Of a stretch of DNA of 39,597 bases, positions 8,235-32,951 are shown one piece after another. The DNA is from Desulfobacteraceae bacterium (lineage in GTDB: Bacteria; Desulfobacterota; Desulfobacteria; Desulfobacterales; ETH-SRB1). The notes under the pieces are model-generated. The model did not search any database. It was not told the DNA's origin and saw only the letters and a list, made by a program, of their open reading frames with translations. Both the position numbers and the translations under genes were made by a program. The stretch lies in assembly GCA_013792055.1 (NCBI GenBank), contig VMSQ01000078.1:1-39597 (forward strand). The letters run 5' to 3'. How positions within the stretch are numbered: position 1 is the first letter of the stretch; each line of letters starts with the position of its first letter.

Positions 8235-8241
8235 GAAGAAA

Positions 8242-12535: not shown

Positions 12536-12540
12536 TCAGC

Positions 12541-13716: not shown

Positions 13717-13893
13717 AGGTCACTCCTTTTTTCTTCCTTCTGCAACCGCACCTCTACCCTGGTTTCGCTGTTCTCTGCCTGATAGAGGAGGATTTCTCCG
13801 CCGGTGGGCTCATTTTTCCGTGAACTGGAAAGCTTGTTTTTCTGTTTTTCTCACATTTTATCACAAAATGAAGGCTCGGAACATATGGCTTCG

Positions 13894-15516: not shown

Positions 15517-15565
15517 AACATGATGCGCTTTCCCTTGTTTTCAGAGTAAAAGTAAATTGTTTTTT

Positions 15566-15757
15566 CTATTTGACAATAACAGAAGTTTTTCGTGATTTTG
15601 ACTCAAAATCATCTAAATTGCGCAAAAACTGTGGGACATCTTCATTACAAAAACGAATCTCTTTGTTCTGAACTTTTCCTTTAGCCTTTGAAGTCATTTG
15701 ATCCAATATTACTTTTCGGCTTTCTTTAAATGACATCGTTGCCTTAGGTTTAGACAT
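15566..15757 (-). CDS. Hypothetical small protein, 63 aa
   Basis: The ATG is preceded by GGGGAG with a 6-nt spacer. It ends 49 nt upstream of the 540-aa ORF on the same strand. Confidence 0.5.
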   Translation of the reverse strand: MSKPKATMSFKESRKVILDQMTSKAKGKVQNKEIRFCNEDVPQFLRNLDDFESKSRKTSVIVK

Positions 15758-15824
15758 GCTCGTCTCCCCTCAGTGTTTATTGTTCCGTTTTTTTTCATTA
15801 TTTCGATAACTAATGTTCTCGATG

Positions 15825-15851
15825 TCTATAAAAATTAGTTTAAATTGTCAA
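15825..15851 (-). promoter_or_regulatory. Candidate sigma70-type promoter for the 63-aa/540-aa pair
   Basis: The minus strand reads TTGACA (15851-15846), a 15-nt spacer, then TATAGA (15830-15825), about 70 nt upstream of the ATG at 15757. The spacing is suboptimal. Confidence 0.3.
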
Positions 15852-15993
15852 GGAAAATGTACTGATGGACGTTATGGACTTCATTTTCCCAGAGCAGATT
15901 CATACCTCCTTCGGTACGTTCCGCGTCTCCAACAGGTTGGCCGAAAGCTCGTAGCATATCCCATGACTTACTGCTGGTTGGCGGCAAGAAACT

Positions 15994-16039
15994 CATCCTT
16001 CACTTGATTTTTTGGCACAAGAATTGTATCCATCATTTC
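15994..16039. repeat. Repeat A (46 bp; partner A' at 35196-35241)
   Basis: 42/46 identical, same orientation. On the minus strand each copy begins a 22-23 codon ORF (MMDTILVPKNQVKDEFLAANQQ* and MIDTILVANNQVKDGFLQTVGIS*). Confidence 0.8.
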
Positions 16040-16123
16040 ATTATGGTAGATATTAACAATAAATAGAATTTCTTAAAAGAACGAATTTAATAACGATATC
16101 CCCATATATTGTATAACCAACAC

Positions 16124-16360
16124 CTAACTAACAAAATTTCGTATAGCTGCTATGCGTGTAACAAAATTGAAACGTTTTAATATTTGTGATATACAGACCC
16201 TATCTTTATAGAAATTGGCTGATTCTTGAGTGTCGGCTTTGGCAAGCTGTACGAGATAAATCCTGATTTTTCTTTTAATATAAGTTTTATCCGAAAATGC
16301 GCTATTGTAAACCTTGTGAACTAAAGATAACGTGTCTTCATTGTTGGAAAATTTGCGCAT
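16124..16360 (-). CDS. Hypothetical small protein, 78 aa
   Basis: MRKFSNNEDT...RVCISQILKRFNFVTRIAAIRNFVS. A related C-terminal fragment (ADRICISQILKRFNLLRC*) is found at 32952-33050, same strand. The start choice is uncertain. Confidence 0.4.
   Translation of the reverse strand: MRKFSNNEDTLSLVHKVYNSAFSDKTYIKRKIRIYLVQLAKADTQESANFYKDRVCISQILKRFNFVTRIAAIRNFVS
16159..16246. repeat. Repeat B (88 bp; partner B' at 32961-33047)
   Basis: Same orientation. The first ~37 nt are nearly identical (taacaaa(a)ttgaaacg(t/c)tttaatatttgtgatataca). By hand alignment the remainder matches at roughly 60-65 percent. Confidence 0.75.
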
Positions 16361-16441
16361 AATGTGAAGAATGAAGACACAGCCCCAATAGTTACGCAAT
16401 CTTTAAACTAAAATCAGGTTTTTTATTTAGGAGAAAAGTTC

Positions 16442-19400
16442 ATGGCCCGTCTCGAAGATCTTAAGGAAGGGGCAACGGTAAAAGGTGTTCGGCCAGATGG
16501 CCCCATTACCATCATCAACGTCAAATGGCACGGCGACGCTGTTGTAGAACTGACGTATAAGGACTCATCTGGACGGCCTGGAAATGAGCTGATCTTCAGA
16601 GATAGAGAGCCTACCTTTGAAGTGATCCAGCCTGGCCAATCCTGGAGCTTTGATGCCGATGCTGGGATGTTACGATTAGTATCGGAAGCCTATCGTATCA
16701 GAATGGCCTATATTTTTGACCCCCTTCTTGCCGTTCACACATCCATGATTGATCCTCTTCCCCATCAGATTACTGCAGTATACGAAGAAATGCTGCCACG
16801 CCAGCCTCTCCGATTTCTCCTCGCCGATGACCCAGGCGCTGGTAAAACAATAATGGCTGGCTTGCTTATAAAAGAATTGATGATCCGCGGCGATTTGGAT
16901 CGCTGTTTAATTGTATGCCCAGGAAATCTAGTGGACCAATGGCAGGATGAACTATATCGCCGGCTTCACCTCCCATTCGAGATATTGACAAATGATCGCC
17001 TGGAGGCTGCCCGCACAGGAAATGCCTTCCTGGAAATCCCCCTTCTCATTGCCCGCCTGGACAAACTGAGCCGTAATGAAGACATACAGGCAAAGCTTAA
17101 ACAAACGGACTGGGATCTCATTATATGCGATGAGGCTCATAAGATGTCTGCTTCGTTTTTTGGTGGCGAAATCAAAGAGACCAAACGTCGGAAACTCGGA
17201 AGATCTCTCTCCGAGCTCACTCGCCATTTTCTCCTGATGACAGCTACACCCCATAACGGTAAAGAAGAGGACTTCCAGCTATTTATGGCTTTGTTGGATG
17301 GAGATCGTTTTGAAGGCCGTTTTCGCGATGGCGTCCATGTAGCCGATGCCTCAGACCTTATGCGCCGGATGGTGAAAGAAAAATTGCTCAAGTTCGATGG
17401 CACGCCACTTTTTCCCGAACGCCTGGCGTATTCTGTCACATATCGCTTATCTGACCAAGAAGCCATTTTATATGAACAGGTAACCAGCTATGTACGGGAG
17501 GAATTTAACAGGGCAGACGCGCTTACAAATGAAGGCCGGAAAGGAACGGTTGGTTTTGCGCTAACCATCCTGCAACGCAGGCTTGCCTCTTCTCCAGAGG
17601 CCATTTACCAGTCCCTCCGGCGACGCAAGGAACGGTTGGAAAATCGCTTGCGGGAGGAAGAATTACTCAAACGTGGAGCAGAAGCCCGTTTTAGGTCAGA
17701 TAAGTGGCCGTCTCCTATGACGGAGGAGGATTTAGAAGATCTGGAAGATGCGACGGATGCCGAAGTAGAGGAAGCCGAAGAAAAAATTGTAGATCTTGCA
17801 ACGGCAGCCCAGACTATTGCTGAACTGCAAGCAGAGATCAACACACTGAAAAATCTGGAGGCACTTGCACTACAGGTTCGCCGTAGTGGGCAGGACAAGA
17901 AATGGGAAGAGTTATCCAAACTTCTTCAGGACAAGCCCGAAATGTTCGACAACCAGGGGTCAAGGCGCAAGCTGGTTGTTTTTACAGAATATCGGGATAC
18001 GCTCAGTTACCTGACCGATCGCATCAAAACCCTTCTAGGGCGTCCTGATGCAGTAATAAATATTCATGGGAGCATGGGAAGGGAGGATCGAAAAAAGTCC
18101 GAAGAAGCCTTCAAACAGGACAAGACCGTGCAGATACTTGTAGCTACAGATGCAGCCGGAGAAGGTATCAATCTCCAGCGGGCTCATCTAATGGTCAACT
18201 ACGATCTACCCTGGAATCCCAACCGCATCGAGCAGCGTTTTGGCCGTATTCACCGTATAGGCCAGACTGAAGTGTGCCACCTCTGGAACCTGATAGCTGA
18301 AGAAACCAGAGAAGGCGACGTGTATTTAACACTTCTCAGGAAGCTGGAGGCTGAAAGAGAAGCTCTTGGAGGTGCAGTATTCGATGTTTTGGGCAAGGCG
18401 CTTGGTGGTGTAGAATTGCGGAAATTACTCATTGAGGCCATAAGGTATGGCGAGAGATCTGATGTCCGCGCCCGGCTCACACAGCAGGTGGAAGAGGCCC
18501 TGGATACTGAACGATTGAAGGAATTGCTGGAAGAAAAAGCGCTCGCTCATGACTCCATGGACTCAAGCCGTGTTCGCCAGATTCGGGAGGATATGGAGCG
18601 CGCTGAAGCAAGGCGCCTGCAACCCCACTTTATCGAATCATTTTTTCTGGAGGCCTTTAAGCTATTGGGTGGAAACACACGAGAACGAGAACCAAGACGC
18701 TATGAGATCAAGCATGTGCCGGCAGTCATCAGGAATCGTGATCGGATAATAGGCATGGGCGAACCAGTTCTTATCCGTTATGAAAGAATTTGTTTTGAAA
18801 AGGATCTGATCAGTATTCCTGGGAAACCTCTGGCCACCTTTGTGTGTCCCGGCCATCCGCTGCTTGATTCAACTACAGACATTATCATGGAGCGCTATCG
18901 AGACCTCCTGAAGCAGGGCGCCGTTTTTATAAACGAATCAGATCCAGATGAAGAGATACATGCTCTCTTTTATCTTGAGCATTCCGTGGCAGATGCCCGA
19001 ACTGATAAGCATGGGAACCGCCGTGTGGTATCTCGTCAGATTCAATTTGTTGAGATCGATGAAAAGGGAAACACCATAAATGCCGGCTACGCACCATATC
19101 TGGATTACAGGCCTTTGACCGAGGACGAGCAGTCGCTGATAGCCCCTGAATTGGAATGCGCATGGTTACATGGCGATCTTGAATCACAGGCTAACAGTTA
19201 CGCTATTACCTACCTGGTTCCCCGGCATTTCAAGGAAATTAGAGATCGTAAGGAAGAATTAGCGGCCAAAACCATTGCTGCCGTTAAAGATCGTTTGACC
19301 AAGGAGATTGCCTATTGGGATCACCGGGCAGAGGAACTAAAGGCTCAGGAATTAGCGGGAAAAATCAACGCCAGAATTAATTCATCTAAGGCCAGAGCGC

Positions 19401-20017
19401 GTGCAGACAAGCTTCAAGCCCGCCTGCAAAATCGTCTGGATGAATTGGAAAAGGAACGCAAACTTTCCCCCCTTCCTCCGGTGGTAATGGGTGGCGCCTT
19501 AGTTGTGCCGGGAGGACTCCTCTCCCGCCTTAAAGGGAAACGAAAGGAAGTACCGGATCTTTTTGCCAGGGAGACCAAACGGATTGAACAGATGGCAATG
19601 CAGGCAGTAATGGATGTAGAGAAGTCTCTGAACTTTGTCCCGCGAGATGTGAGCCGGGACAATTGTGGATATGATATTGAATCTTCAATTCCTGATACGG
19701 GAAAGTTACGCTTTATCGAGGTTAAGGGCCGACTTCAGGGTGCAAAAACGGTTACGATAACCAAGAATGAGATTCTCACAGCCTTAAATAAACCCGATGA
19801 TTATATACTGTCAATCGTCCTGGTACCGCCATCAGAAACGCAACTTGAAACTGATCTATGGCAAATAAAAGAGCCCATGGCCGGCTATGGTAAAATATGG
19901 AATGATTGCCAAGTTTACTATATTCGCAGGCCATTTATCAGAGAACCCGATTTTGGCGTGACAAGCGTTAACTATAATCTTCAGGAATTGTTAGCCAATG
20001 CGGAGGTTCCCGGTTGA
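16442..20017 (+). CDS. SNF2-family helicase with C-terminal DUF3883-like (PD-(D/E)xK-type) domain
   Basis: 1191 aa. AGGAG SD. Motifs: LLADDPGAGKT, ICDEAHKMS, MTATPHNGKEEDF, ATDAAGEGINLQ, QRFGRIHRIGQ. Long coiled-coil region. The C-terminus has GYDIESS...LRFIEVKGR...ITKNE...YILSIV. Confidence 0.9.
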   Translation: MARLEDLKEGATVKGVRPDGPITIINVKWHGDAVVELTYKDSSGRPGNELIFRDREPTFEVIQPGQSWSFDADAGMLRLVSEAYRIRMAYIFDPLLAVHTSMIDPLPHQITAVYEEMLPRQPLRFLLADDPGAGKTIMAGLLIKELMIRGDLDRCLIVCPGNLVDQWQDELYRRLHLPFEILTNDRLEAARTGNAFLEIPLLIARLDKLSRNEDIQAKLKQTDWDLIICDEAHKMSASFFGGEIKETKRRKLGRSLSELTRHFLLMTATPHNGKEEDFQLFMALLDGDRFEGRFRDGVHVADASDLMRRMVKEKLLKFDGTPLFPERLAYSVTYRLSDQEAILYEQVTSYVREEFNRADALTNEGRKGTVGFALTILQRRLASSPEAIYQSLRRRKERLENRLREEELLKRGAEARFRSDKWPSPMTEEDLEDLEDATDAEVEEAEEKIVDLATAAQTIAELQAEINTLKNLEALALQVRRSGQDKKWEELSKLLQDKPEMFDNQGSRRKLVVFTEYRDTLSYLTDRIKTLLGRPDAVINIHGSMGREDRKKSEEAFKQDKTVQILVATDAAGEGINLQRAHLMVNYDLPWNPNRIEQRFGRIHRIGQTEVCHLWNLIAEETREGDVYLTLLRKLEAEREALGGAVFDVLGKALGGVELRKLLIEAIRYGERSDVRARLTQQVEEALDTERLKELLEEKALAHDSMDSSRVRQIREDMERAEARRLQPHFIESFFLEAFKLLGGNTREREPRRYEIKHVPAVIRNRDRIIGMGEPVLIRYERICFEKDLISIPGKPLATFVCPGHPLLDSTTDIIMERYRDLLKQGAVFINESDPDEEIHALFYLEHSVADARTDKHGNRRVVSRQIQFVEIDEKGNTINAGYAPYLDYRPLTEDEQSLIAPELECAWLHGDLESQANSYAITYLVPRHFKEIRDRKEELAAKTIAAVKDRLTKEIAYWDHRAEELKAQELAGKINARINSSKARARADKLQARLQNRLDELEKERKLSPLPPVVMGGALVVPGGLLSRLKGKRKEVPDLFARETKRIEQMAMQAVMDVEKSLNFVPRDVSRDNCGYDIESSIPDTGKLRFIEVKGRLQGAKTVTITKNEILTALNKPDDYILSIVLVPPSETQLETDLWQIKEPMAGYGKIWNDCQVYYIRRPFIREPDFGVTSVNYNLQELLANAEVPG

Positions 20018-23000
20018 GATTATCTCGCCCTGCATATTTCACTCGTGTGCAAGATGATGCCAGAAGGCGGTGGGATCAACTCGAAGCTGATCCTGTTCTG
20101 GCAGGGCCGTGGCATCAGTTGTTTCGGCAGGTTCAAAGCCCCCGGCATGTGCTTTCTGAACTGTTGCAAAACGCTGACGATGCCAAAGCCACATGGGTTC
20201 AGGCAACAATTAGCGATGGTCTTTTCGAGTTTGTTCATAATGGCGAGGATTTTGATGAGGAATCACTTCAATCAATATGCCAATTTGGACTTTCAAATAA
20301 ACGACACCTTCACACCATTGGATTTCGCGGTGTCGGATTCAAATCGGCCTTTGCCCTTGGACCACAAGTAGAGATAATTACGCCGTCATTAACTTACGGA
20401 TTTCATCATAAGCGATTCACTGAACCTATCTGGCTTGCACAACAAACAAGTTCTGGAGAGACAATCATCAGAGTGGCTATTGATCAAGCGTCCAAGATTA
20501 CGACCCTCCGTGCTGAATTTGATCGCTGGGTTAGAAGCCCTATACCCTTGCTTTTTTTTCATCATATAAAGCGGCTGGAAATTCAGAATCATGCTATACG
20601 CAGGGAAGTTCTGGGACCGGGACCGATGCCTAAAGCCGAATATATTCGACTTTCCAACGGCAAGACGATAGACGTACTGGTTGTCCATTCCGACCCTGAA
20701 GCCTTTCCCCAAGAGGTCATGGAAGAGATAAGAGATGAACGAGGATCAATGGAATTGGATCTTCCACCATGTGCCGTGCAAATTGTTTTAAGTGAAGCTG
20801 CTGAACATTTCCTTTACACCGTGTTGCCGACTGAGGTTAAACCCCTACTACCTTTTTCTTTCAATGGTCCATTTATGCAGGATCCGGCGCGTAGAGAAAT
20901 CAAACATCCCGTAAACTCGCCTACAAACAGATGGCTCCTTCAAAGAATCGGCCAATTGGCGTCAAATGCCATGAGGGGATGGTTGGATAACCAAGATATT
21001 GATGTCAAGGAGAGAGCACGTGCCTATGAACTGCTTCCGCGACATTCTGAAAAAGAAGATACCCTCGATGATGTCTGCACAAACTTAGTCATAGAAGAAT
21101 TCAAGAAATCGTTTTCTTCACACGAAAAAATCCTACTTGGACACGATGGGTCTCTTTTATCAAAAGACAATGTGGTAGCATTGCCAAAGGCTATTACCCA
21201 AACGTGGCCACCTGAGCAGGCGCTGAATATTTTCGCTCCGCACAGAAAAAAAGTCCTTTCTCAAGACATCCGAAAGCGATCATTTGATTCTTTGAAGAGT
21301 TGGAATGTCCTTGACGAGCTGGACATAAAAGACATCGTAGGGAAACTTCTTTCAATGACCGAGGCAGGGCCTTTTTGTCCCAAGCCATTAGAAAGGCTTT
21401 TCCATCTGTGGGCATATTTACAACCCCTTTCTTCACCCGATTCCCGGGAGCTAAAAAAGATAATTCGTAAACTGCCGATTGTGCCCGTATCGGGGAAAAA
21501 AGAACTTTTACCTGCGGAAGATGTCCTGGTTCTCGGGGGCAGGGAATGGGAGGTTTCCGATGAGAATAAGGATTTTTTGATGTCTCGGGTGGATGTAGCT
21601 GATCCGGCCTGGGTTAAGCTGATGACAAACGTTGATGAAGAAAAGATTGAAAAACACCATGCTCTTGCCTGTGATTTTTTTAATAAGCTTAACCTTTATC
21701 AAAGGGTGGGCGTGGAACAGGTTGTTGCAGCAGCGGCAAAAAAGATTTTCAACTCATCCAACGATCTGGATGAAGAAGGAATAAGACTCGCACGGATTGC
21801 TGCTTTTTCTGATGTTAGAATTCAGGATGATTTTAAGTTTCTCTGTCAGGATGGGCAATGGCGTACAACAACTTCAGAACTTCTTGTCCAGGGTAGCGAA
21901 GACCTTGAGGCTCTTCTGCCATGGGATATTTTCAGTATAAAAGTGATATCGGATGATTATGAAAAAGGACTTCCTTCTAAAGATATTGAACGCTGGCGAA
22001 CGTGGGCCGGAGATTTTCTAAAAAGTAAACTGTTATGCTTTCCTGTGCCGTTACTGAGCAAGGAAACAGTACAGAAAAATCATTCAGACATTTCTAAGTT
22101 ATGTATCAGTAGAGGTGGGAACGCTCCATCCTCTTACCCACTCAAAAGCCATTATTTCCAAATACATGATTATAACTGGGATGAAAACATCTGGTTTGAG
22201 TGGCAGGATATGGAGGAAGATAGGCCAGGTTTTTTAAGTGAGGTACTTCGGGCAATTCTGCAGAACTGGTCTGAAATCTGGGAAAAAAGAGTAGGCGCAA
22301 AAGTGTTTCAGGAAGGTCATACCTACATACGTACTTTAGACCATGGTAATCTCAGGGCTGCATGGCTCCAAAAGCTTCGTAATCTTAGCTGTCTTCCGGA
22401 TACTTTTGACAATTGTTACCTGCCGGCAGAGTTATATCGGAGAACACTGGATACGGAAGCTCTTTTAAACATAGAGAAATTTGTCCATCACGATTTTGAT
22501 AAACCGCAATATTCAAAAATTCTTGATCTGCTTGGCGTACAAAGTCAACCGACAGGTGTAGACCCATTGTTAACTCGTTTGAAAGACTTGTCAAAGACCA
22601 AAACGCCTCCAATTACGCATCTCGTAGATCTTTATCGTGCCATAGACCGTGTACTTCTCAGAATGGATACAAGAGAAACCGCTAAACTGAAAAGATCCTT
22701 CAACGAAAATGCCCTGATCTACACAGATGGTCATGATTGGGAAAAGTTAAACACCGTTTTTAGAGACAATCCGGAAGATATTCCAGGAGTTCGTCTAATA
22801 CATCCGGAGGCGGCTAATCTGGCTATGTGGGACCGCTTTGAGGTTCCCCGCCGGCCAACGCTCGGAATGGCCATTGCATGGCTTAAAAGCAAGCCATTAG
22901 ATCAATCTCTGAATAAACCTGACAGGGAACGAGCCATTGAAATTCTCCGTCGGGCACCTGCACAAACATGGCAGGAATGTCAGGCATGGCTCGATGTAAC

Positions 23001-24186
23001 AGGCCGCTGGGTCTCTAAATCTGACCTTAAATGGTACACAAATAACATCCAGACCATATCCGGGCTATTCAGCCCCTTTAAACGGCGGACAGCAGATCTA
23101 TCAATACTGGATGGCACTGCAAACATCGATTTTATTCGCGATGCAGGTTTGAATGCTTTGGATAATCTGATCGAACATCGACTCGAAAGCCGGGTCTTTG
23201 CAAATCACGTTTCAAAACCAAGCTGGTTATTAAGACTGGCCGACATTCTACTGAGGCTTCGAAGACCTGACGATAATGAAACATCTGAAAATCTGAAAGT
23301 TGTATATGAATCGGAACGCAGTCTTGCTTCACGTTTGAAAAAAGTCAAATGGCAGCCAGTCCATAATCTCAAAGTTATTCCTTACATCAATAGTGAACAA
23401 GCAGGATCACCCAGTGAGCGTAAAGTAATTTGGCAGGATGATTCTATTTATGTCCAGGGAAGTCCACCCGCCCACCATCCTGAACTCATAAATGAATTAT
23501 CGCGACACTTTCAGACACACGATGTAAAAAAGATTATTGCCGATTGCGTTGATCGTGATCCGGAGTGGATTGACGTTTATGCGGATGAACATCTTGATCT
23601 CGAGGATTTACCTTCAGAGGAAACATCTGTTAGTAAGCCTCCAGAAGAAGATAAAAAAATAGCGACAGAACCACCTGTTACTGTGGAAACCCCTCCAGAA
23701 AAAATCTTGGATAATGGGAAAGAACATGAGCAACATAAAGACAATGAGGACGAAGATGACAAAGGTGAAGACAAACTCCGCACAAAGTCCCCCATAACGA
23801 GTCCTGATTCCGTCAAGAAAGGTTTTAAATCTTTCCTTGATAAACTTGGCTTCACCTGGGTTCCACAGCATGAATACTTCGCGGATAATAACGGAACAAT
23901 CATCCGCAAAACTGAACCACCATTTAAGTGGGCGGAATATAATGTTTCTGGGGAACGTATTGGAAGCTACTGGGTAGGCCGAGGTTCTCTGGAAAATGGG
24001 GTTGAAATCCCCGCCGATATCTGGAATCAAATACTTACCGATAACCAACAAATTTTCATCATACTGATTGATAGTCCATCCGTTTCAAGATATAAATTGT
24101 CTGACCTCAAAGATATGGTAAATCTGGGTAAAATCGAGATATATCCAACCCGAATGATCATCCGCACAAGGGATCAGATTGAATGA
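20014..24186 (+). CDS. Giant GHKL (sacsin/MORC-like Bergerat-fold) ATPase protein
   Basis: 1390 aa. The N-terminus has SELLQNADDAKA, HNGEDF and IGFRGVGFKSAF. There is an acidic low-complexity linker near residues ~1190-1250 and a small C-terminal domain of unknown type. The TTG start overlaps the upstream TGA (TTGA). The first in-frame ATG is ~200 codons in. Confidence 0.8.
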   Translation: MRLSRPAYFTRVQDDARRRWDQLEADPVLAGPWHQLFRQVQSPRHVLSELLQNADDAKATWVQATISDGLFEFVHNGEDFDEESLQSICQFGLSNKRHLHTIGFRGVGFKSAFALGPQVEIITPSLTYGFHHKRFTEPIWLAQQTSSGETIIRVAIDQASKITTLRAEFDRWVRSPIPLLFFHHIKRLEIQNHAIRREVLGPGPMPKAEYIRLSNGKTIDVLVVHSDPEAFPQEVMEEIRDERGSMELDLPPCAVQIVLSEAAEHFLYTVLPTEVKPLLPFSFNGPFMQDPARREIKHPVNSPTNRWLLQRIGQLASNAMRGWLDNQDIDVKERARAYELLPRHSEKEDTLDDVCTNLVIEEFKKSFSSHEKILLGHDGSLLSKDNVVALPKAITQTWPPEQALNIFAPHRKKVLSQDIRKRSFDSLKSWNVLDELDIKDIVGKLLSMTEAGPFCPKPLERLFHLWAYLQPLSSPDSRELKKIIRKLPIVPVSGKKELLPAEDVLVLGGREWEVSDENKDFLMSRVDVADPAWVKLMTNVDEEKIEKHHALACDFFNKLNLYQRVGVEQVVAAAAKKIFNSSNDLDEEGIRLARIAAFSDVRIQDDFKFLCQDGQWRTTTSELLVQGSEDLEALLPWDIFSIKVISDDYEKGLPSKDIERWRTWAGDFLKSKLLCFPVPLLSKETVQKNHSDISKLCISRGGNAPSSYPLKSHYFQIHDYNWDENIWFEWQDMEEDRPGFLSEVLRAILQNWSEIWEKRVGAKVFQEGHTYIRTLDHGNLRAAWLQKLRNLSCLPDTFDNCYLPAELYRRTLDTEALLNIEKFVHHDFDKPQYSKILDLLGVQSQPTGVDPLLTRLKDLSKTKTPPITHLVDLYRAIDRVLLRMDTRETAKLKRSFNENALIYTDGHDWEKLNTVFRDNPEDIPGVRLIHPEAANLAMWDRFEVPRRPTLGMAIAWLKSKPLDQSLNKPDRERAIEILRRAPAQTWQECQAWLDVTGRWVSKSDLKWYTNNIQTISGLFSPFKRRTADLSILDGTANIDFIRDAGLNALDNLIEHRLESRVFANHVSKPSWLLRLADILLRLRRPDDNETSENLKVVYESERSLASRLKKVKWQPVHNLKVIPYINSEQAGSPSERKVIWQDDSIYVQGSPPAHHPELINELSRHFQTHDVKKIIADCVDRDPEWIDVYADEHLDLEDLPSEETSVSKPPEEDKKIATEPPVTVETPPEKILDNGKEHEQHKDNEDEDDKGEDKLRTKSPITSPDSVKKGFKSFLDKLGFTWVPQHEYFADNNGTIIRKTEPPFKWAEYNVSGERIGSYWVGRGSLENGVEIPADIWNQILTDNQQIFIILIDSPSVSRYKLSDLKDMVNLGKIEIYPTRMIIRTRDQIE

Positions 24187-24210
24187 ATGGTAAGTAAGGA
24201 TTGTTAACTT

Positions 24211-25464
24211 ATGGAGACAAGAAAGAAAAAACTGATTGAGGTCGCCCTTCCTCTGGATGCGATTAATCGAGAATCGGCAAGGGAAAAATCCATCCGGCAC
24301 GGTCATCCCAGCACCCTGCATTTATGGTGGGCGAGACGACCTTTGGCGGCTTGCCGAGCCGTCCTTTTTGCTCAATTGGTAGATGATCCATCAAGCCATC
24401 CAGACAAGTTCCCTACTGAGGAAGCCCAGAAAAAAGAAAGAGAGAGGCTTTTTAATATCATTGAAGAAATGGTGAAATGGGAGAACATCAATAATGAACG
24501 GGTTCTGGAAAAGGCACGAAAGGAAATCCTGAAATCTACAGATGGCAATCCACCTCCTGTGTTAGATCCATTTTGCGGGGGCGGTTCAATTCCATTGGAA
24601 GCTCAGAGGTTGGGGCTCAAGGCATATGCCAGCGATCTTAACCCAGTAGCAGTTCTCATTACCAAGGCCCTTATTGAGATTCCTCCCAAGTTCGCCGGCA
24701 GGTCACCGGTTCACCCCGGGGCTCAAACTTCTTCCCAATCGCACGGGGCAAAGGGACTGGCCGAGGATGTGCGCTATTATGGGAAATGGATGCGGGATGA
24801 GGCTGAAAAACGTATAGGTAACCTTTATCCCAAGGTCAAGCTGCCGGAGGAATATGGTGGGGGTGAGGCCACGGTGATTGCCTGGTTGTGGGCAAGAACC
24901 GTCAAATGTCCTAATCCTACTTGTGGAGCTCAGATGCCGCTTGTGAGATCGTTTGCCCTTTCGACCAAGAAAGGCAAGCAGGCATGGGTGAAGCCGATGG
25001 TGGAGGGGAATCAGTACCGTTTCGAGGTGAGAACAGGTGAAGGCAAGCCCCGAGAGGGAACAATGAATAGACGAGGAGCAACTTGTCTTTGCTGCAGAAC
25101 ACCTGTGCCGTTTGATCATATTCGTGCAGAAGGAAAGGCTGGCAGAATGCGCCAGAGGCTTATGGCGATTGTGACCGAGGGGCCAAGAAAAAGGATATAT
25201 TTAGAAGCAGATACCGAGCATGTAAGGGTTGCTAAAAAGGCGGAACCTAAATGGAAGCCAGGCGGGGAGTTACAGGGAAAATGCAGGGTTAGTGTGCCTC
25301 TCTATGGAATGAACACATTTGCTGACCTCTTCACCCCCCGCCAGCTCGTCGCCCTGACCACCTTCAGCGATCTGGTGATGGAGGCGCGGGAGCGGGTTCA
25401 TGAAGATGCCATCAAGACCGGGATGACGGATGATGGCAAGGGGCTGGACGATGAAGGAACTTGA
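24211..25464 (+). CDS. DUF1156-type DNA methyltransferase, N-terminal part (SAM-binding motif, Zn ribbon)
   Basis: 417 aa. Motifs: [56 protein letters not shown]...CLCCRTPVP. It ends at TGA 25462-25464, in frame with the next ORF. Confidence 0.85.
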
Positions 25465-25467
25465 GCA

Positions 25468-26997
25468 ATGGGGTATGCTGATGCAGTGGCGACGTATTTG
25501 GCGTTCGCTGTGGATAAAGGTTCGAACTATTGGTCTTCCCTGTGCGCTTGGCATTCTGGTCGTGACATTATCATGAGCACCTTTGCCAGACAGGCATTGC
25601 CTATGGTATGGGACTTTACAGAGGCCAATCCGTTTAGTAGTTCAAGTGGAAATATCCTCTTGGGAATAAGTCAAGCATCTCAGATGTTGGATAAAGTCCC
25701 AGCAAGCCTCCAAGCATTGACCAGACAGCTCAATGCAACTGAAACCATAAACAATGTCAATCATCCTTTGATTTGTACAGATCCCCCTTACTATGACAAT
25801 ATCGGATACGCAGATCTATCCGACTTCTTTTATGTCTGGCTCAGACGTTCCATTGGAAAAATATATCCAGATCTTTTCAGCACCATGCTGGTGCCCAAGG
25901 CGGAAGAACTGGTTGCCACGCCATATAGATTTGGTGGAAATAAAAAAGATGCCCGCAGGTTTTTTGAGGAAGGTTTGCGAAGGACTTTTATCAGGATGAA
26001 AAAGACCGCTCACCCGGAGTATCCCCTGGCTGTGTACTATGCATTCAAACAGTCTGAAAGCGATTCAAATATCAAAGACGGCAATGGAAACAGCGCTGTT
26101 GCCTCCACCGGCTGGGAGACAATGCTTGAAGGACTTTTGGCCTCGGGTTTCCAGATCACAGGCACCTGGCCTATGAGAACAGAACTCATCACAAGCCTAA
26201 AGAAAAGTGTGAGTGCGTTGGCTTCTTCCATAATTCTTGCCTGCCGTCCCCTGCCTGAAGACGCCCCCATGACCACGCGCCGCGATTTTATCAACACAAT
26301 GAAGCGCGAACTCCCCCCGGCTCTCAAGACCCTCCAGCAGGAAAACATCGCACCAGTTGACCTGGCACAATCCGCCATTGGCCCCGGCATGGCGGTCTTT
26401 TCCAAATACAGCAAAGTCCTGGAAGCAGATGGAACCCCTATGCGTGTTCGTGCGGCGCTGGCTCTTATCAACCAGGTGCTGGACGAGTATCTGGCAGAAC
26501 AGGAAGGGGAATATGATGCTGATACCCGCTGGGCATTGGCCTGGTTTGAACAGTTTGGTATGATGGAAGGTCCTTACGGAGTTGCAGAGATCCTGTCGAC
26601 AGCCAAGAACACGGCTGTGGGCGGCCTTGTGGCGGCAGGTATAATTATATCCAGAGCGGGCAAGGTTAGAATTCTCCGGCGTGATGAATTGCCCGAGGAT
26701 TGGAACCCTGCAACTGATAAGCGTCTTACAGTCTGGGAGGTAACACAACATCTGATTCGCGTCCTTGTGGACAAGGGCAGCGAGGAGGTGGCAGCAGATC
26801 TTCTCAGAAAGGCCGGCGCCCTGGGCGATGTTGCAAGGGATTTGGCATACCGACTTTATACCATATGTGATCGAAAGAAATGGGCACAGGAGGCCTTGGC
26901 GTACAATAGCCTGGTGGTTGCCTGGCCAGAGTTGGTCAAGCTGGCGGGTCAAAAAGAAGTGAAAGGACCTTCACAGCAACAGTTGTTCGAGGGATAA
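25468..26997 (+). CDS. DUF1156-type DNA methyltransferase, C-terminal part (catalytic DPPY motif)
   Basis: 509 aa. Has TDPPYYDNIGYADLSDFFYVWLR. Same frame as 24211-25464, separated only by TGA-GCA. GAAGGA lies 9 nt upstream of its ATG. Confidence 0.85.
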   Translation: MGYADAVATYLAFAVDKGSNYWSSLCAWHSGRDIIMSTFARQALPMVWDFTEANPFSSSSGNILLGISQASQMLDKVPASLQALTRQLNATETINNVNHPLICTDPPYYDNIGYADLSDFFYVWLRRSIGKIYPDLFSTMLVPKAEELVATPYRFGGNKKDARRFFEEGLRRTFIRMKKTAHPEYPLAVYYAFKQSESDSNIKDGNGNSAVASTGWETMLEGLLASGFQITGTWPMRTELITSLKKSVSALASSIILACRPLPEDAPMTTRRDFINTMKRELPPALKTLQQENIAPVDLAQSAIGPGMAVFSKYSKVLEADGTPMRVRAALALINQVLDEYLAEQEGEYDADTRWALAWFEQFGMMEGPYGVAEILSTAKNTAVGGLVAAGIIISRAGKVRILRRDELPEDWNPATDKRLTVWEVTQHLIRVLVDKGSEEVAADLLRKAGALGDVARDLAYRLYTICDRKKWAQEALAYNSLVVAWPELVKLAGQKEVKGPSQQQLFEG

Positions 26998-27007
26998 TGG
27001 AAAGATT

Positions 27008-27044
27008 ATCACGAAAGCACGGAAGAAATTCGTGTTTTCGTGAT
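27008..27044 (+). promoter_or_regulatory. Intra-operon 14-bp stem-loop
   Basis: atcacgaaagcacg / cgtgttttcgtgat (13 Watson-Crick pairs plus 1 G-U) with loop gaagaaatt, between the methylase stop and the RBS of the DUF499 gene. No downstream T-tract. Confidence 0.55.
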
Positions 27045-27064
27045 TAATAAAGAGAGGTCTTCAC

Positions 27065-30000
27065 ATGGCAATAAGTAATAGTGAAAGAATCGGAAAGGGC
27101 TTGGAGTTTCTCCGAAATGGTCTGGTTCCCTTTGTAGAGAGGGAATTGGAAGCGGTATATGGGGACGAATGGCAGGAAAAAGCCAGACAGAGCATATCCA
27201 AAGAGAGGGACTGGAAAGTTGAAAAAGGAAAGATTCAATGGGATGTCTATCTGATCCTGATGATCCTCTGGAATCACTGGAACGACGTTTTCAGGCGCAC
27301 ACTTGGTCAAGCGGAACGATCCTACGTGAGTGAACTCAGGGAAGCCCGGAATCGCTGGGCACACCAGAACGCGTTCACCTATGATGACACCTATCGTGTT
27401 CTTGATACCATGATCCGGTTGCTCAGATCTGTGTCGGCAAAAGAAGCAGATGCGGTTGATAAAATCGCCCAAGAGACGATGCGTGTCCGTTTTGCCGAAC
27501 AGTCCCGTCTCGAAACGCGCAGGAAAACTGTAGCACCTATTGACGGCAGCCCATCTCCGGGTCTGAAGCCCTGGCGCCAAGTTGTCACGCCACACCCGGA
27601 TGTTGCCAGTGGTCGCTATCAGCAGGCAGAATTTGCCGCAGACTTGGAGCAAGTTCGTTCCGGCCATGCGAGTGGAGAATATGGAGAACCGCGGGAATTT
27701 TACCGACGGACATTCCTCACTGTTGGATTAAAGGATCTCTTGAAAGAGGCCATTCTTCGATTGACAAAACAGGGTGGCAGCCCAGTGGTAGAGCTACAGA
27801 CAAACTTTGGAGGGGGGAAAACCCACTCTATGCTGGCGCTATATCATTTCTTCTCGGACATCCCTGCCAATGAGCTGACAGGAGTAGAAGAAATTCTTGA
27901 GTCAACGGGCATTACGTCAACGCCAAAAGTTAAACCTGCCGTTTTAGTTGGAACCGCCCTCAACCCTGGCCAGTCTCACATCAAGGATGACGGCACAGAG
28001 ATTAGAACCTTGTGGGGGGAATTGGCATGGCAACTGGGAAAAGCTGAAGGTTATGGATTAGTGGCAGGGAATGACGCCAATGGAACCAGCCCCGGCTCCC
28101 AGGTTCTCTGTGATCTGTTCAAACGATACAATCCCTGCCTGATCCTTATAGACGAATGGGTGGCCTATGTCCGGCAGACCTATGGGAAGACAGGCTTGTC
28201 TGGAGGAAGCTTTGACGCCAATATGACATTTGCCCAGGCCCTTACGGAGGCCGCACGAGGAACGCCCGGCACCATGCTTGTGGCGAGTATTCCATCTTCC
28301 GATATTGAGATCGGAGGTGATGGAGGAAAAGAGGCCTTGACCAGACTGAAAAACACCTTCGGTCGAATGGAATCCCCGTGGCGCCCGGCCAGTGCTGAGG
28401 AGAGTTTCGAGATTGTGAGGCGCAGATTATTTGAGCCCATTGCAGACCCCAGGGATTTTGCCGCAAGGGATGCCGTAATTAAGGCATTCGGCCAGCTCTA
28501 TCGAGGAAACAAAGCAGAATTCCCTCAGGGATGTGGGGAAGGTGATTACGAGCGTCGACTGGAAAAGGCATATCCTATTCATCCTGAGCTTTTCGACAGG
28601 TTGTACGAAGACTGGGGCAGTCTCGAACGGTTTCAAAGAACCCGAGGTGTGCTGAGACTGATGGCTGCTGTGATATCAGAGCTCTGGGATCGCCAGGATG
28701 CCGGCCTCTTGATCATGCCAGCTTCCGTGCCGATGGATGCGTCTGCGGTCCAGTCTGAGCTGACTCGTTACTTGGAAGATGCTTGGCGCCCTGTGATGGA
28801 AAAGGATGTGGACGGCACGGAGGCCTTGCCATTAAAGATAGACCGCGAGGTGCCCACATTGGGCAGATATTCTGCTTCAAGACGTGTGGGTCGAACAATT
28901 TACATGGGTTCAGCACCTCTTTCAAAAACCAAGAACCCAGGAATAGACGACCGACGTATTCGATTGGGATGTGTCCAGCCTGGTGAAAACGTAGCGACAT
29001 TTGGCGATGCTTTAAGGCGGCTCACAGATCAGGCGACCCATCTCTATGTTGATGGCAAGCGTTACTGGTATTCCACGCAGCCCAGCGTTACACGTCTGTC
29101 TCAGGACCGGGCTGCACAACAGGATATTGATGCCGTATGGGATGATCTCAATCGTCGTCTCAGGGGTGATCGCCAGCGTGGAGAATTTGCTGCTGTCCAC
29201 ACCGTTCCCGGATCAAACGCCGATGTGCCGGATGATATGGAAGCACGGCTTGTAATCTTAGGACCGGATAAACCACACTCCGGCAAAACACCAGATAGTA
29301 AAGCCCGACTTGAGGCTGAACAAATACTCAATAACAGGGGAAACAGTCCTCGAATCTACAAAAATATGCTGGTTTTTCTTGCGCCGGATAAAGCCCGCTT
29401 GAATGACCTGGAACAGGCCATTCGTAATTATCTGGCCTGGAATTCCATATGGAAAGAAAGAGAGGCCCTGAACCTGGATGCATTTCAGTCCAACCAAGCA
29501 TCCACTAAACAAGAACAGGCGGAAGAAACGATTGAAAGCCGTATCAAAGAGGCCTATGCCTGGCTCCTCGTTCCGTTACAGCCAGATCCTCGGGGAGCAA
29601 TAGAATGGCAAGAATCTCGCCTTCAAGGTCAAGATGCCCTTGCTATAAGGGCCAGCAAAAAGCTCAAAAATAACGAGAATCTTATCACTCAGTTCTCCCC
29701 CACCCGTCTACGTTTGGAGCTGGACCGTTATCTCTGGAAAGAAACTGATCATCTTAACCTGAAAAAGCTCTGGGAATATTTCGCTACGTACCTTTATTTG
29801 CCGCGTCTTAAGGACAGTCAAGTGTTGATCCAGGCTGTGCAGGACGGTGTCCAACAAATTACTTGGGCAGACTACTTCGCTTATGCAGAAGGATGGGATG
29901 AGAAAAAGAAAAGATATCTTGGTCTCAAGGCAGGACAATTGACATCCATTCTTTTGGATAGCCAAAGTCTTATTGTTAAGCCAGAGGTTGCAAAAAGGAA

Positions 30001-30343
30001 GATAGATGCGAAAAAGGAAGAAGAGGAAGTAATTATTGACGTGGTGACAGGTGGGGAAAGGCCCGGAGAAGAGGAAATTGGTCCTGAGGAGCCAGCCAGC
30101 CCAGCCCAGCCCAGGCGCTTTTATGGTTCAGTCAAGCTGGATGCTACGAGACTCGGAAGGGATGCAGGAAGAATAGCTGAAGAAGTCGTACAGCATCTTT
30201 CAGCCATTGTTGGTGTAAACGTGGAAATCAGCCTCGAAATCAGCGCCCAAATCCCTGATGGAGCTTCTGATAACGTTGTCCGAACCGTTACCGAAAATTG
30301 TAACACACTACATTTCACATCCTATGGATTTGAAGAAAAATGA
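27065..30343 (+). CDS. HEPN (Swt1-like) + DUF499 P-loop ATPase (BrxC/PglY-related)
   Basis: 1092 aa. GAGAGG SD. N-terminal RNRWAH (Rx4H) at nt 27347-27364. Walker A NFGGGKTHSM, Walker B LILIDEW. YPIHPELFDRLYEDW...FQRTRGVLRLMA is the signature shared by DUF499/BrxC-type ATPases. Confidence 0.88.
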   Translation: MAISNSERIGKGLEFLRNGLVPFVERELEAVYGDEWQEKARQSISKERDWKVEKGKIQWDVYLILMILWNHWNDVFRRTLGQAERSYVSELREARNRWAHQNAFTYDDTYRVLDTMIRLLRSVSAKEADAVDKIAQETMRVRFAEQSRLETRRKTVAPIDGSPSPGLKPWRQVVTPHPDVASGRYQQAEFAADLEQVRSGHASGEYGEPREFYRRTFLTVGLKDLLKEAILRLTKQGGSPVVELQTNFGGGKTHSMLALYHFFSDIPANELTGVEEILESTGITSTPKVKPAVLVGTALNPGQSHIKDDGTEIRTLWGELAWQLGKAEGYGLVAGNDANGTSPGSQVLCDLFKRYNPCLILIDEWVAYVRQTYGKTGLSGGSFDANMTFAQALTEAARGTPGTMLVASIPSSDIEIGGDGGKEALTRLKNTFGRMESPWRPASAEESFEIVRRRLFEPIADPRDFAARDAVIKAFGQLYRGNKAEFPQGCGEGDYERRLEKAYPIHPELFDRLYEDWGSLERFQRTRGVLRLMAAVISELWDRQDAGLLIMPASVPMDASAVQSELTRYLEDAWRPVMEKDVDGTEALPLKIDREVPTLGRYSASRRVGRTIYMGSAPLSKTKNPGIDDRRIRLGCVQPGENVATFGDALRRLTDQATHLYVDGKRYWYSTQPSVTRLSQDRAAQQDIDAVWDDLNRRLRGDRQRGEFAAVHTVPGSNADVPDDMEARLVILGPDKPHSGKTPDSKARLEAEQILNNRGNSPRIYKNMLVFLAPDKARLNDLEQAIRNYLAWNSIWKEREALNLDAFQSNQASTKQEQAEETIESRIKEAYAWLLVPLQPDPRGAIEWQESRLQGQDALAIRASKKLKNNENLITQFSPTRLRLELDRYLWKETDHLNLKKLWEYFATYLYLPRLKDSQVLIQAVQDGVQQITWADYFAYAEGWDEKKKRYLGLKAGQLTSILLDSQSLIVKPEVAKRKIDAKKEEEEVIIDVVTGGERPGEEEIGPEEPASPAQPRRFYGSVKLDATRLGRDAGRIAEEVVQHLSAIVGVNVEISLEISAQIPDGASDNVVRTVTENCNTLHFTSYGFEEK

Positions 30344-30898
30344 AATGAAAACAGGTGGTCTGCTCTTGACTCATGTTAGTGTGAAATCCGAATTGATATT
30401 GAGTTCAAAGCCTTGCCCGAATTTCAGAGCAGGTTACGTTTGAAAAAGGGACTATGGTTCGATGTTTGGGGACGATATGCATTATAGTTTCTACTTATGA
30501 AAACAGTTGAGTAGTACTTTTGTCTATCCATCTGCTGCTGTTCTCAAAGTTCCGGTTGTTGCTATCTGCTAACAATCTTGATTGTTTTGCAACGCAAAAA
30601 GGGTTTTGATATCTGTTATCTCGACATTATTCAGCTATACCAAGATGTATAAAAATAATTATCGAGTATTTCCAGCACTTGAAGTGTTGATAAATTCTAC
30701 ATGTTTTTTTAAGCAGGCCGCCCTATGTGTCACCATATAGGATGTCTCGGGCTTCTGGTTTGTCATTGTAGTTTTCATTTGCCTGCATTTTGGAGATTTA
30801 GTAATATTATATTTAAGGGCTATGAAAAAAGAAAGGAAAGGTGGGAGGAGATAGCTGACCTAATGCTAACTCCTCACTATTTTATAAACAATAAATCA

Positions 30899-30983
30899 CC
30901 CCACCCACCCAAAATGGGTTCAGATTCCTCTCCGCATTCTGCTTCGTAGGAAACTGAACCCATCTCCCCTAAAAGGAAAAAAG
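30899..30983. repeat. Structured repeat unit, copy 1
   Basis: ccccacccaccc, then hairpin 30915-30962 (tgggttcag..ttcct..loop..aggaa..ctgaaccca), then cccc-taaaaggaaaaaag. About 80 percent identical to 31563-31650 by hand alignment, with non-triplet indels. Confidence 0.7.
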
Positions 30984-31562
30984 AAGCCGGCAGAAAAGAT
31001 GCCCGCTTCTAAATGACCACGATTTAGAACAATACTGAATTCAAAGGGTTCAATTAACCGCTCGGCTATCCAGGCTTTTCGCAATTTATTTACCCGTCTC
31101 GAACCAAAGGTAGGGGCATAAAATATTGCGTTTTTTCTCCCCCCTGACAACCCCCCTCTTTTTCATAGCTGCTCGCTTTTCCATCTTCACGTCGGCCTGT
31201 CATGGTTTGTGCATTCTGTAAAAAAGCCTTTCACTTTATCGGTGTACATTTTTTTACGTTTCAGGCGATTTTTTTCCAGGCACAAACCACGCCATGCCTT
31301 TGGTTCATCTGCGCTCACATCTGATAAGGCAGCTCATTCACTACGTTCACCGTACAGCCGAGCTGAACTTTCGCACTTAATTTTTAAGTCAGGGGGGTGA
31401 CAAAACACCATCATATTTTATGCCCATTAAATCACCCCTGGCCCCTCAAAGGGGTGTGATCGCCCCGCCCGCCCAAGGCTGAGAGTCCATCTTCACCACA
31501 AGGGAGTAAAAGACGGACACTCGGTCATTCCCGTCCGCCCCCCAAGGGCTCCCTATCTCTTA

Positions 31563-31650
31563 CCCCACCCACCCAATCAGGCTGGTTCAGATTCTCCCTC
31601 CGCATCTTGCTCCATGAGAAACTGATCCAGCCTCCCCCTTAAGGGAGAAA
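31563..31650. repeat. Structured repeat unit, copy 2
   Basis: ccccacccaccc, then hairpin 31580-31632 (ggctggttcag..ttctc..loop..gagaa..ctgatccagcc), then ccccc-ttaagggagaaag. The inner stem differs from copy 1 by two compensatory pair changes. Confidence 0.7.
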
Positions 31651-32063
31651 GCTAATGAATTCGGAACCGGTTGAAAAATACCAATTCCTCTATCACTATT
31701 TAAAGAAAAAGATACGAAGCCTGATAAAATATTCTAAAGAAAGTTCTTTAAATTTATGTTGTTTTGCGGGGGGGTGTGCGTGGTCTTGGTGGTACATATT
31801 TATGTGCAGGTTCCAAGGCAGAGAAAGCCACCAAATCCCCCGCCCACCCTTTGCCTTCGCTCCCTCGCTTCGCATCGGTCGCTTGCCCCCCGCTAAAAAA
31901 GGAAGAAAACCCAATCAGACGGGAGTACGTATTCAACTATTAAAGCTGCTTGCGCCGGTGCATTAATTCTGGCTTGTTTTTACCTATAAAGGGCGGTATT
32001 AAGGACTGTACTTTTATAATATCATGAAAACATCACAATCTTTTGATACCAAAATATATTTGG

Positions 32064-32897: not shown

Positions 32898-32951
32898 TCG
32901 GGTAAGGGGGTGATTTTCTCTCCCACTCTCCACAACACTACGGCATGCGGG

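Follow-up and report, generated by a model that had tools for sequence, protein, structure and literature searches.

The Hma system was described in 2013 as a gene neighbourhood in which an SNF2 helicase with a fused DUF3883 occurs together with a methylase and with a DUF499 AAA+ ATPase that is fused to HEPN (PMC3710099). The name Hma was given in 2021, with 1,638 loci in 26 phyla (PMC8565338), and in 2026 the system was re-classified as the Type-1 DUF499-centred BREX-related (BR) system, present in 2,446 taxa, with the HEPN fusion as the majority form (1370/2446 taxa) and a helicase-nuclease fusion in 79% (PMC12839542). Anti-phage activity has been demonstrated for Halomonas HmaA against T4: in 2024 this protein alone was reported to be non-toxic in E. 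coli and to block T4 in an abortive infection-like way, with both the helicase domain and the NOV_C domain needed for defence; its NOV_C domain nicks supercoiled DNA with Mn2+, and over-expression of HmaB left T4 susceptibility unmodified (PMC11232893). Other genes are often nested within Hma, in 62.7% of 1,485 systems by one count (bioRxiv 10.1101/2024.01.29.577857) and 66.5% by another (PMC11232893). The DNA analysed here, referred to as the window, is the 39,597 nucleotide contig VMSQ01000078.1 of the Desulfobacteraceae bacterium assembly GCA_013792055.1. It carries an Hma operon in which open reading frame 2 (ORF2), encoding a giant GHKL-type ATPase, is present between hmaA and hmaB. What is new is ORF2; the embedding of genes in Hma, the HEPN fusion and the core system itself are already in the literature.

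In eukaryotes, NO VEIN combines GHKL with NOV_C, and sacsin combines Hsp90-like repeats with HEPN. Among prokaryotes, Tiamat (TmtA) is a single-gene anti-phage system, reported by Millman et al. in 2022. It has been listed as containing PD-(D/E)xK (bioRxiv 10.1101/2024.10.26.620412). For other defence nucleases that are regulated by GHKL, namely the paraMORC restriction-modification modules and the Shedu protein VcSduA with its N-terminal GHKL, an ATP-dependent dimeric clamp has been proposed to control the nuclease (PMC12137116). The relationship of DUF499 and DUF1156 proteins to BREX has also been described (PMC12839542).

The operon of the window contains five ORFs in one direction, the first two overlapping by 4 nt (TTGA) and the others separated by gaps of 24, 3 and 67 nt. 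These positions exactly reproduce those of an initial annotation made from the sequence alone, and all of the motifs quoted there are present in the proteins. The annotation treated ORF3 and ORF4 as separate genes and overlooked the interruption between them; they are one hmaB with an in-frame TGA. The features of the operon are:

16442..20017, forward strand: hmaA (ORF1), 1191 aa, SNF2 helicase with C-terminal NOV_C/DUF3883 PD-(D/E)xK nuclease
20014..24186, forward strand: ORF2, sacsin/Hsp90-type GHKL ATPase, 1390 aa, TTG start
24211..26997, forward strand: hmaB (ORF3, 24211-25464, and ORF4, 25468-26997), DUF1156 N6-adenine methyltransferase, 928 codons with an in-frame stop inside
25462..25464, forward strand: nonsense codon (TGA) of hmaB, where sister assemblies have GGA (Gly)
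27065..30343, forward strand: hmaC (ORF5), N-terminal Swt1-type HEPN fused to DUF499 AAA+ ATPase

Domains were sought with Pfam, PADLOC and NCBIfam, the Pfam searches taking in 25 larger ORFs of the window and the PADLOC searches 15 of these. Each of the domains claimed in the initial annotation was recovered, SACS/HATPase_c being below threshold in Pfam. HmaA matches the PADLOC HmaA profile with 1712 bits, aa 1-1189 aligning with a profile of 1176 positions, and contains the Pfam domains SNF2-rel_dom, Helicase_C and NOV_C (4.6e-21). The motifs DDPGAGKT, DEAHK, TATPHNG, QRFGRIHRIGQ and GYDIES...RFIEVKGR are all found in it. Its NOV_C domain is at aa 1048-1133 (window 19583-19840), with D1078, E1093 and K1095 present, and this D/E/K set does not vary across 13 homologues. 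The two parts of HmaB match the PADLOC HmaB profile with 570 bits (ORF3, profile 8-468) and 632 bits (ORF4, profile 472-965). Pfam identifies DUF1156 (4.8e-34), and motif I (DPFCGGGS) is in the N-terminal fragment, motif IV (DPPY, within DPPYYDN) in the C-terminal one; HmaB also has a CxxC motif. HmaC matches the PADLOC HmaC profile with 1105 bits over aa 167-1091 and the Pfam domains HEPN_Swt1 (3.6e-38) and DUF499 (1.4e-30); its HEPN domain, aa 11-124 (window 27095-27436), has RNRWAH (R95-x4-H100), and the FQRTRG motif is also present in the protein.

The window thus has full-length HmaA, HmaB (ORF3 with ORF4) and HmaC in the co-directional A-B-C order of Hma, with the SNF2-NOV_C fusion, DUF1156, and HEPN fused to DUF499. 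An extra gene is embedded between hmaA and hmaB, as occurs in ~63-66% of Hma loci. The differences from Hma are the ORF2 GHKL gene and the nonsense codon in hmaB. On these matches the core of the operon is Hma, alias the Type-1 BREX-related system, and is already known. The PADLOC label Hma suggested in the initial annotation was correct; its description of the system as uncharacterised was not, given the description of 2013, the naming of 2021, the experiments on HmaA of 2024 and the re-classification of 2026. Apart from ORF2, that description holds nothing new. A scan of the operon for promoters and terminators gave the same counts as in shuffled sequence.

The operon resembles BREX, especially type 3 (BrxC, PglXI, BrxHII), in a DUF499 ATPase that looks BrxC-like (FQRTRG), a methylase that looks PglXI-like, its BrxHII-like HmaA (PADLOC BrxHI/BrxHII matches of 305-328 bits) and a predicted methylation-based logic. 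Among the BREX profiles of PADLOC, PglXI is matched at only 0.0074 and BrxC has no match at E <= 0.01; the homologues here are of the DUF499 and DUF1156 type. The Hma operon of the window differs from BREX in having no PglZ, BrxA, BrxB or BrxL, in the nuclease being on the helicase, and in its three-gene core. The initial annotation had noted that PglZ is missing, and there was indeed no match to it in the Pfam scans of the 25 larger ORFs or the PADLOC scans of 15 of them.

In the ORF2 protein, aa ~40-700 form a GHKL N-domain and an Hsp90-like middle domain. These are followed by an alpha/beta region specific to the family, as far as ~1200, then by a disordered acidic/Pro linker (~1200-1263), and last by a C-terminal domain of ~125 aa. 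Its GHKL motifs are ELLQNADDA (with E49 and N53), HNGEDF (HNGxDF in the family) and TIGFRGVGF (TIGFRGxGF in the family). In 25-40 homologues E49, N53, D56, G77 and G103-R105-G106-G108 are invariant or nearly so, and by these residues the ATPase looks active. The NCBIfam model of the sacsin ATP-binding domain, NF047352, is matched with 72.8 bits, while Pfam SACS/HATPase_c is below cut-off. An AlphaFold2 model of aa 1-720 has a predicted local distance difference test score (pLDDT) of 87.7, with a low-confidence lid at 99-106. The best Foldseek matches to this model are full-length Hsp90, TRAP1 and GRP94 (E 7e-8), covering the N and middle domains, and all 50 of the 50 matches listed are of the Hsp90 family (Hsp90, TRAP1, GRP94, HtpG). 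A GHKL with S5-fold of the MORC/paraMORC type was rejected, as the listed Foldseek matches are all of the Hsp90 family and the Pfam match is to SACS.

The C-terminal half of the protein is different. The AlphaFold2 model of aa 701-1390 is confident (pLDDT 84.9) except for the disordered acidic linker, and Foldseek found no significant match to it in the PDB, the weak best matches (E 0.4-3) being PD-(D/E)xK-fold proteins. No conserved D/E/K catalytic set was seen in the last ~125 residues, where conservation is confined to Gly, Trp, Phe and a GVEIPAExW segment. A degenerate NOV_C was considered and rejected, with an hhalign probability of 0.3%, non-significant Foldseek matches and no Pfam NOV_C match. 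As far as its residues and predicted fold can tell, ORF2 has no nuclease of its own. An exhaustive HMMER search with aa 701-1390 identified 536 clusters at 50% identity, and 328 of these have E <= 1e-30. The architecture is a fixed one: in the best 150 of the 536 the matching region is either the C-terminal half of a protein of ~1,390 aa or part of a shorter fragment.

The nearest named relative is TmtA of Tiamat, for which the PADLOC profiles PDLC03964-03972 were used. All nine models match ORF2, the best being PDLC03968 (1.3e-54), only in aa 41-465, which correspond to profile positions 73-501 of 1486 (429 positions, ~30%). This region is the sacsin-type GHKL and the next domain, and both proteins are giant (>1000 aa). 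The rest of ORF2, aa 500 to 1390, is family-specific and is matched by no TmtA model, and it lacks the C-terminal NOV_C/PD-(D/E)xK that is present in the TmtA-type proteins L057, L060, P0099 and P0224. Tiamat stands alone, whereas the ORF2 family, in the loci sampled, is found almost only inside Hma operons. ORF2 is like the paraMORC and Shedu proteins in that a GHKL ATPase is tied to a PD-(D/E)xK nuclease in a defence setting, but its GHKL is of the Hsp90/sacsin rather than the MORC/MutL type, the candidate nuclease is on the separate HmaA, and this nuclease is NOV_C rather than DUF4263. The operon also brings together the sacsin-type GHKL, NOV_C and HEPN of NO VEIN and sacsin, here as separate polypeptides in a prokaryotic defence operon; nothing in the analysis points to direct descent.

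The initial annotation had proposed a survey of gene neighbourhoods, and two were conducted. A context-blind pattern scan with two GHKL motifs was run on 185,579 genomes, each representing one GTDB species. The best 80 matches were kept, and their neighbours were checked by tblastn with the Hma proteins of the window. The best 49 of these 80 loci (L001-L049) have relatives that match ORF2 well past the N-terminal module. In almost all of those with flanking sequence an Hma gene adjoins the relative, usually hmaA immediately upstream. The carriers are diverse: Smithella, Anaerolineales, Desulfobulbus, Planctomycetota, Paracoccaceae, Bacillota, a Methanobacteriota archaeon, Mesorhizobium, Thauera, Acidobacteriaceae and Actinomycetota. 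Departures from the order of hmaA then relative are found in L004 (after hmaC), L029 and L038 (a truncated, rearranged copy), all still within or beside Hma genes, and the truncated contigs of L034 and L049 have no Hma gene in the available sequence. The ORF2 homologue starts -10 to +26 nt from the hmaA stop in 45 of 46 cases. Downstream, the distance from ORF2 to hmaB is bimodal, with hmaB following directly in 13 loci and 0.8-4.8 kb of extra cassettes intervening in 18; these cassettes are always 3' of ORF2 and never between hmaA and ORF2.

The reverse scan started from HmaA in metagenomes, using its C-terminal alignment (A4), and gave 75 informative Hma loci. The ORF2 family is present in 10 of these (~13%), adjacent to hmaA in 8 and elsewhere in the locus in 2. 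The GHKL gene is an unusual addition, as had been thought, and is not peculiar to this locus. Two more look-ups with Pfam-annotated neighbours, in the cultured Rubrivirga sp. IMCC43871 (CP177355.1, HmaA-ORF2 locus L174) and in one metagenome-assembled genome, agree on the link between ORF2 and Hma. Desulfobulbus elongatus DSM 2908 is a further carrier in culture.

Two stand-alone relatives end in NOV_C. They are P0099 (L161 1237-5478) and P0224 (L176 10001-15049), both of which share the long middle region of ORF2; between the NOV_C domains of P0099 and HmaA the identity is 36%. They are the only members of the family found with a NOV_C of their own and both are outside Hma loci, against roughly 59 members without NOV_C (~46 + 10 + 2 loci and the window; Fisher p ~0.002, hand arithmetic). 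The two proteins suggest that the NOV_C domain has moved between helicase and GHKL protein.

The more distant sacsin-type GHKL proteins are of two kinds. The first is fused to NOV_C (L057, L060), and the C-termini of the TmtA profiles PDLC03967 and PDLC03969 span that region. The second lies directly after a DrmD-like SNF2 helicase (L054, L055, L059, L061, L062, L064, L074, L076, L078), which in L061 carries HEPN_Swt1 at its N-terminus. Four modules are thus reused in different combinations: SNF2, the sacsin-type GHKL, NOV_C and HEPN_Swt1. In the same nine loci (for example L054 6187-13039) the second kind forms a tightly overlapping module of a ~1070-aa DrmD-like SNF2 helicase and a ~1025-aa TmtA-like sacsin GHKL protein, accompanied by a ~176-aa ORF in five loci, with Sphingomonas, Rhizobium, Neorhizobium, Hoeflea and others as hosts. 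No description of a pairing of a DrmD-like SNF2 helicase with a Tiamat-like protein was found in the literature.

As for ORF2 itself, GHKL, MORC, sacsin, HATPase, Hsp90 and Tiamat are not mentioned in PMC12839542. In the accessible part of the Payne 2024 supplement 'HATPase' is used only for the AlbA_2/HATPase_c_4/HTH family. In the portion of the literature that was available no description was found of the ORF2 GHKL family or of its restriction to Hma; it may still be among the 434 published Hma-embedded families.

The evidence leans towards ORF2 being an Hma-dependent accessory that acts through the nuclease of HmaA, rather than a fifth, unrelated system. Within the window its TTG start sits within the hmaA stop (gGTTGAg), with GGAGG 9 nt 5' of the start, and this arrangement suggests translational coupling between hmaA and ORF2. 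Several observations weigh against this dependence. Pairwise distances from 22 complete loci correlate at r = 0.81-0.93 among HmaA, HmaB and HmaC, while those of ORF2 correlate with each of these at only r = 0.26-0.37, so that ORF2 behaves as an exchangeable cassette. The family is absent from ~87% of sampled Hma loci, and the locus with the closest HmaA relative (L081, 86% identity) is without ORF2 while that of another (L082, 80%) has it. The complementary distribution of NOV_C is known from only two proteins, P0099 and P0224. Nor is the tight junction specific to ORF2: loci without the GHKL gene share the hmaA 3' end and an ATGA/GTGA overlap with the next gene. Across ~110 loci of L001-L160 the hmaA 3' end (window 19990-20020) encodes ...LL(A/S)RAE(E/A)P(R/A/G), with an internal GGAGG and an (A/G/T)TGA stop-start, whether the next gene is hmaB, ORF2 or a different cassette. 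This 3' end appears to be a conserved, generic 'socket' for translational coupling at a known insertion hot spot. A C-terminal signature of HmaA separating loci with and without the GHKL gene was looked for and none was seen.

At the other junction, the first ~66 residues of HmaB (DUF1156) encoded at L087 12333-12530 are 95% identical to those of the window, the rest of the protein being ~56% identical. The conserved 5' end of hmaB and 3' end of hmaA could be recombination anchors for cassette exchange.

The same evidence can be read as 'guilt-by-embedding', in which ORF2 is an autonomous, Tiamat-like single-gene system nested in Hma that shares its transcription and coupling and has an unrecognised effector of its own. 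This is a possible but less probable explanation. It would account for the patchy distribution, the poor co-divergence with HmaA, HmaB and HmaC and the generic nature of the socket, and it accords with the presence of unrelated embedded defence genes in 62.7% of Hma systems, with the match of the N-terminal 465 aa to the TmtA models, and with the PD-(D/E)xK fold of all the weak best Foldseek matches to the C-terminal half (E 0.4-3). However, this family, in contrast to embedded systems such as Septu and GmrSD, is almost never found away from Hma. It lacks conserved catalytic residues beyond those of the ATPase, and it is the bearers of a nuclease (NOV_C) that are outside Hma.

ORF3 and ORF4 share one frame and are parted by a single TGA (25462-25464), across which the PADLOC HmaB profile runs on from 468 to 472; they are therefore one hmaB gene, not two. 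HmaB is continuous here in 30 of 30 other loci, and the Gly that aligns with the TGA is the second one in a conserved segment, 'GG.G(A/S)xAYADAVA'. Alleles were compared in contigs from other assemblies of the same population, chosen by an identical HmaC protein. L170 (GCA_018900475.1) and L171 (ERZ27247124) have GGA and an intact HmaB of 928 aa; L172 (ERZ27247111) has TGA, as in the window, and thus the allele is not a lone assembly error. TGA/GGA is the sole non-synonymous difference across 12.7-16.9 kb at 99.96-99.98% identity, and L172 has one more difference in hmaB, which is synonymous. The hmaB stop is a natural nonsense polymorphism that is segregating, with at least two assemblies showing it. 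Recoding of UGA, as Gly (genetic code 25) or selenocysteine, was rejected: hmaA, ORF2, hmaC and other genes of the window end in TGA as their ordinary stop, which excludes a UGA=Gly code, and the sisters have GGA. An ATG at 25468, two codons past the TGA and ~10 nt downstream of AAGGA, could allow re-initiation and give a split methylase, its motif I and its DPPY lying on separate fragments. With the TGA allele the system runs either without a full-length methylase or with a split one, and the persistence of a methylase-null allele beside intact hmaA, ORF2 and hmaC agrees with the published non-toxicity of HmaA alone.

An improbable alternative is that the operon in this strain is a decaying, non-functional remnant and that the nonsense codon, which replaces a conserved Gly codon and occurs in two assemblies, is the first step of pseudogenisation. 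Against this, hmaA, ORF2 and hmaC are full length with intact catalytic motifs, HmaA defends without HmaB in E. coli, and the re-initiation codon could yield a split methylase. In addition, intact hmaB alleles co-exist at 99.96% identity with no other non-synonymous difference, so the mutation is either very recent or conditionally tolerated. The five-ORF reading of the initial annotation, a new methylation-linked defence system of five components with GHKL as its third effector, has the tight co-directional packing and the confirmed domains in its favour but hardly survives, as three of the four genes (not five) belong to the canonical Hma/Type-1 BR set, for which descriptions and experiments have been published, ORF2 is in only ~13% of Hma loci, and GHKL modules are ATPase switches or regulators and not effectors.

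If ORF2 is an accessory of Hma, a mechanism can be proposed for the operon. Homology indicates that HmaB would mark host DNA by N6-adenine methylation and that HmaC, with its BrxC-like DUF499, ORC/Cdc6-like AAA+ ATPase, would survey DNA and license HmaA. The SNF2 motor of HmaA would then translocate and nick DNA through the C-terminal NOV_C, activities that are known from the Halomonas homologue, and the HEPN domain of HmaC may be a back-up or fail-safe RNase. ORF2, made in step with HmaA, may dimerise on ATP as an Hsp90/sacsin-like clamp and gate or target the NOV_C of HmaA in trans, rebuilding the GHKL-NOV_C pairing that Tiamat has in cis. In this way it could give the operon a second trigger, independent of methylation.

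A wider form of this proposal can be put forward tentatively. In the immunity of prokaryotes, sacsin-type GHKL ATPases might generally work together with NOV_C nucleases and SNF2 motors, the Hsp90-like clamp gating a NOV_C nickase that is delivered by an SNF2 translocase. Tiamat (in cis), the pairs of SNF2 with TmtA-like proteins, and Hma with ORF2 (in trans, with HEPN_Swt1 on HmaC) would then be permutations of one machine.

The operon is carried by an integrative island at a tRNA-Asn gene, the features of which are:

5593..5668, forward strand: tRNA-Asn (GTT), the integration target of the island (ARAGORN; Rfam tRNA 65.8 bits)
5659..5669, unstranded: attL core TGGGGAGCCAA, left copy of the 11-bp direct repeat (alignment with empty-site contig L163)
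5627..7207, reverse strand: large serine recombinase, integrase of the island, 526 aa (Pfam Resolvase, Recombinase and Zn_ribbon_recom)
5670..35293, unstranded: integrative island of ~29.6 kb, carrying the Hma operon (empty-site comparison)
35283..35293, unstranded: attR core TGGGGAGCCAA, right copy of the direct repeat (empty-site alignment)

Contigs with an identical HisS are found both with the island (L162, L165, L166) and without it (L163, L164, L169). The source names of HisS cluster members point to an uncultured Desulfobacterales/'Deltaproteobacteria' lineage as the host. In the latter, aspS and tRNA-Asn are directly followed by the HD-domain gene that is at 35466 in the window, and the serine recombinase is absent. 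Alignment places the insertion between window positions 5673 and 35283, with flanks that are 98% identical in L163, and the left copy of the 11-mer TGGGGAGCCAA is the 3' end of the tRNA-Asn. The view of the initial annotation that the operon is cargo of a mobile island is borne out by these empty sites and by the 11-bp repeat. The att core is just 11 bp and was detected solely through the empty-site alignment, no exact repeat of at least 12 nt from the tRNA 3' end having been found. An origin from a plasmid was rejected, as megablast of the operon against PLSDB gave no match, and the tRNA is the only Rfam match.

Besides the Hma operon and the large serine recombinase, the island contains genes for a helix-turn-helix protein, a primase-like protein with four unknowns, an RNase H-like protein, and a DUF262 and RiboL-PSP-HEPN pair. 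Five co-directional genes at 8242-15516 on the reverse strand (877, 132, 413, 391 and 540 aa) have no match in Pfam, PADLOC or NCBIfam; the 877-aa protein has a match to phrog_47 (1e-12), a family of phage DNA primases, and the 391-aa protein one to phrog_37634, of unknown function. This set is probably a replication or mobility module of the island. Between the two defence modules of the island is a gene (32043-32897) for a 284-aa RNase H-like protein, with an RNase HI domain at aa 23-176 and an extension of ~100 aa. The second candidate defence module (33224-34806) is a pair in which the gene for a DUF262/GmrSD_N protein (PADLOC NsnA 5e-67, PD-T4-2_A 5e-52) overlaps by 4 nt the gene for a 155-aa HEPN protein of the RiboL-PSP type, the latter without a PADLOC match.

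A non-coding stretch of 1.7 kb (30344-32042) separates hmaC from the RNase H-like gene. It has repeated C-rich, ATCACCCCACCCACCCAA-like motifs (30878-30919, 31414-31455, 31560-31585), each followed by a hairpin (for example 30914-30929/30948-30963, 94% complementary), has no Rfam match, and may be a structured RNA or repeat. Within it, 31739-31790 is hypervariable between the assemblies that are 99.96-99.98% identical and holds all of the non-coding differences between them (31739, 31746, 31773, 31775-31777 and 31790). One of these is +GGG in L170 within a poly-G tract, gcGGGGGGGtg, ~270 nt upstream of the RNase H-like gene. This could be phase variation or homopolymer assembly noise.

Hma/Type-1 BR is among the most widespread defence systems without a known mechanism (26 phyla, ~2,400 taxa), and the role of its methylase is disputed. 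The pair of hmaB alleles, GGA and TGA, with no other non-synonymous change between them, is a natural experiment on the need for the methylase in self-protection. Should ORF2 be only a nested autonomous gene, it would be one further entry in the published catalogue of genes embedded in Hma. As a protein nearly restricted to Hma, in which a nuclease in cis has apparently been replaced by that of HmaA in trans, it could reveal how the HmaA nickase is controlled. To our knowledge Tiamat has no known mechanism, and the action of ORF2 upon a nuclease in trans would supply a testable model for it. If sacsin-type GHKL ATPases are general partners of NOV_C nucleases, Hma with ORF2 would be a subtype of four components that can be triggered independently of methylation. 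This would explain why an hmaB-null allele is tolerated, and the subtype would also be a plausible source, among prokaryotes, for the architectures of eukaryotic NO VEIN (GHKL and NOV_C) and sacsin (GHKL and HEPN).

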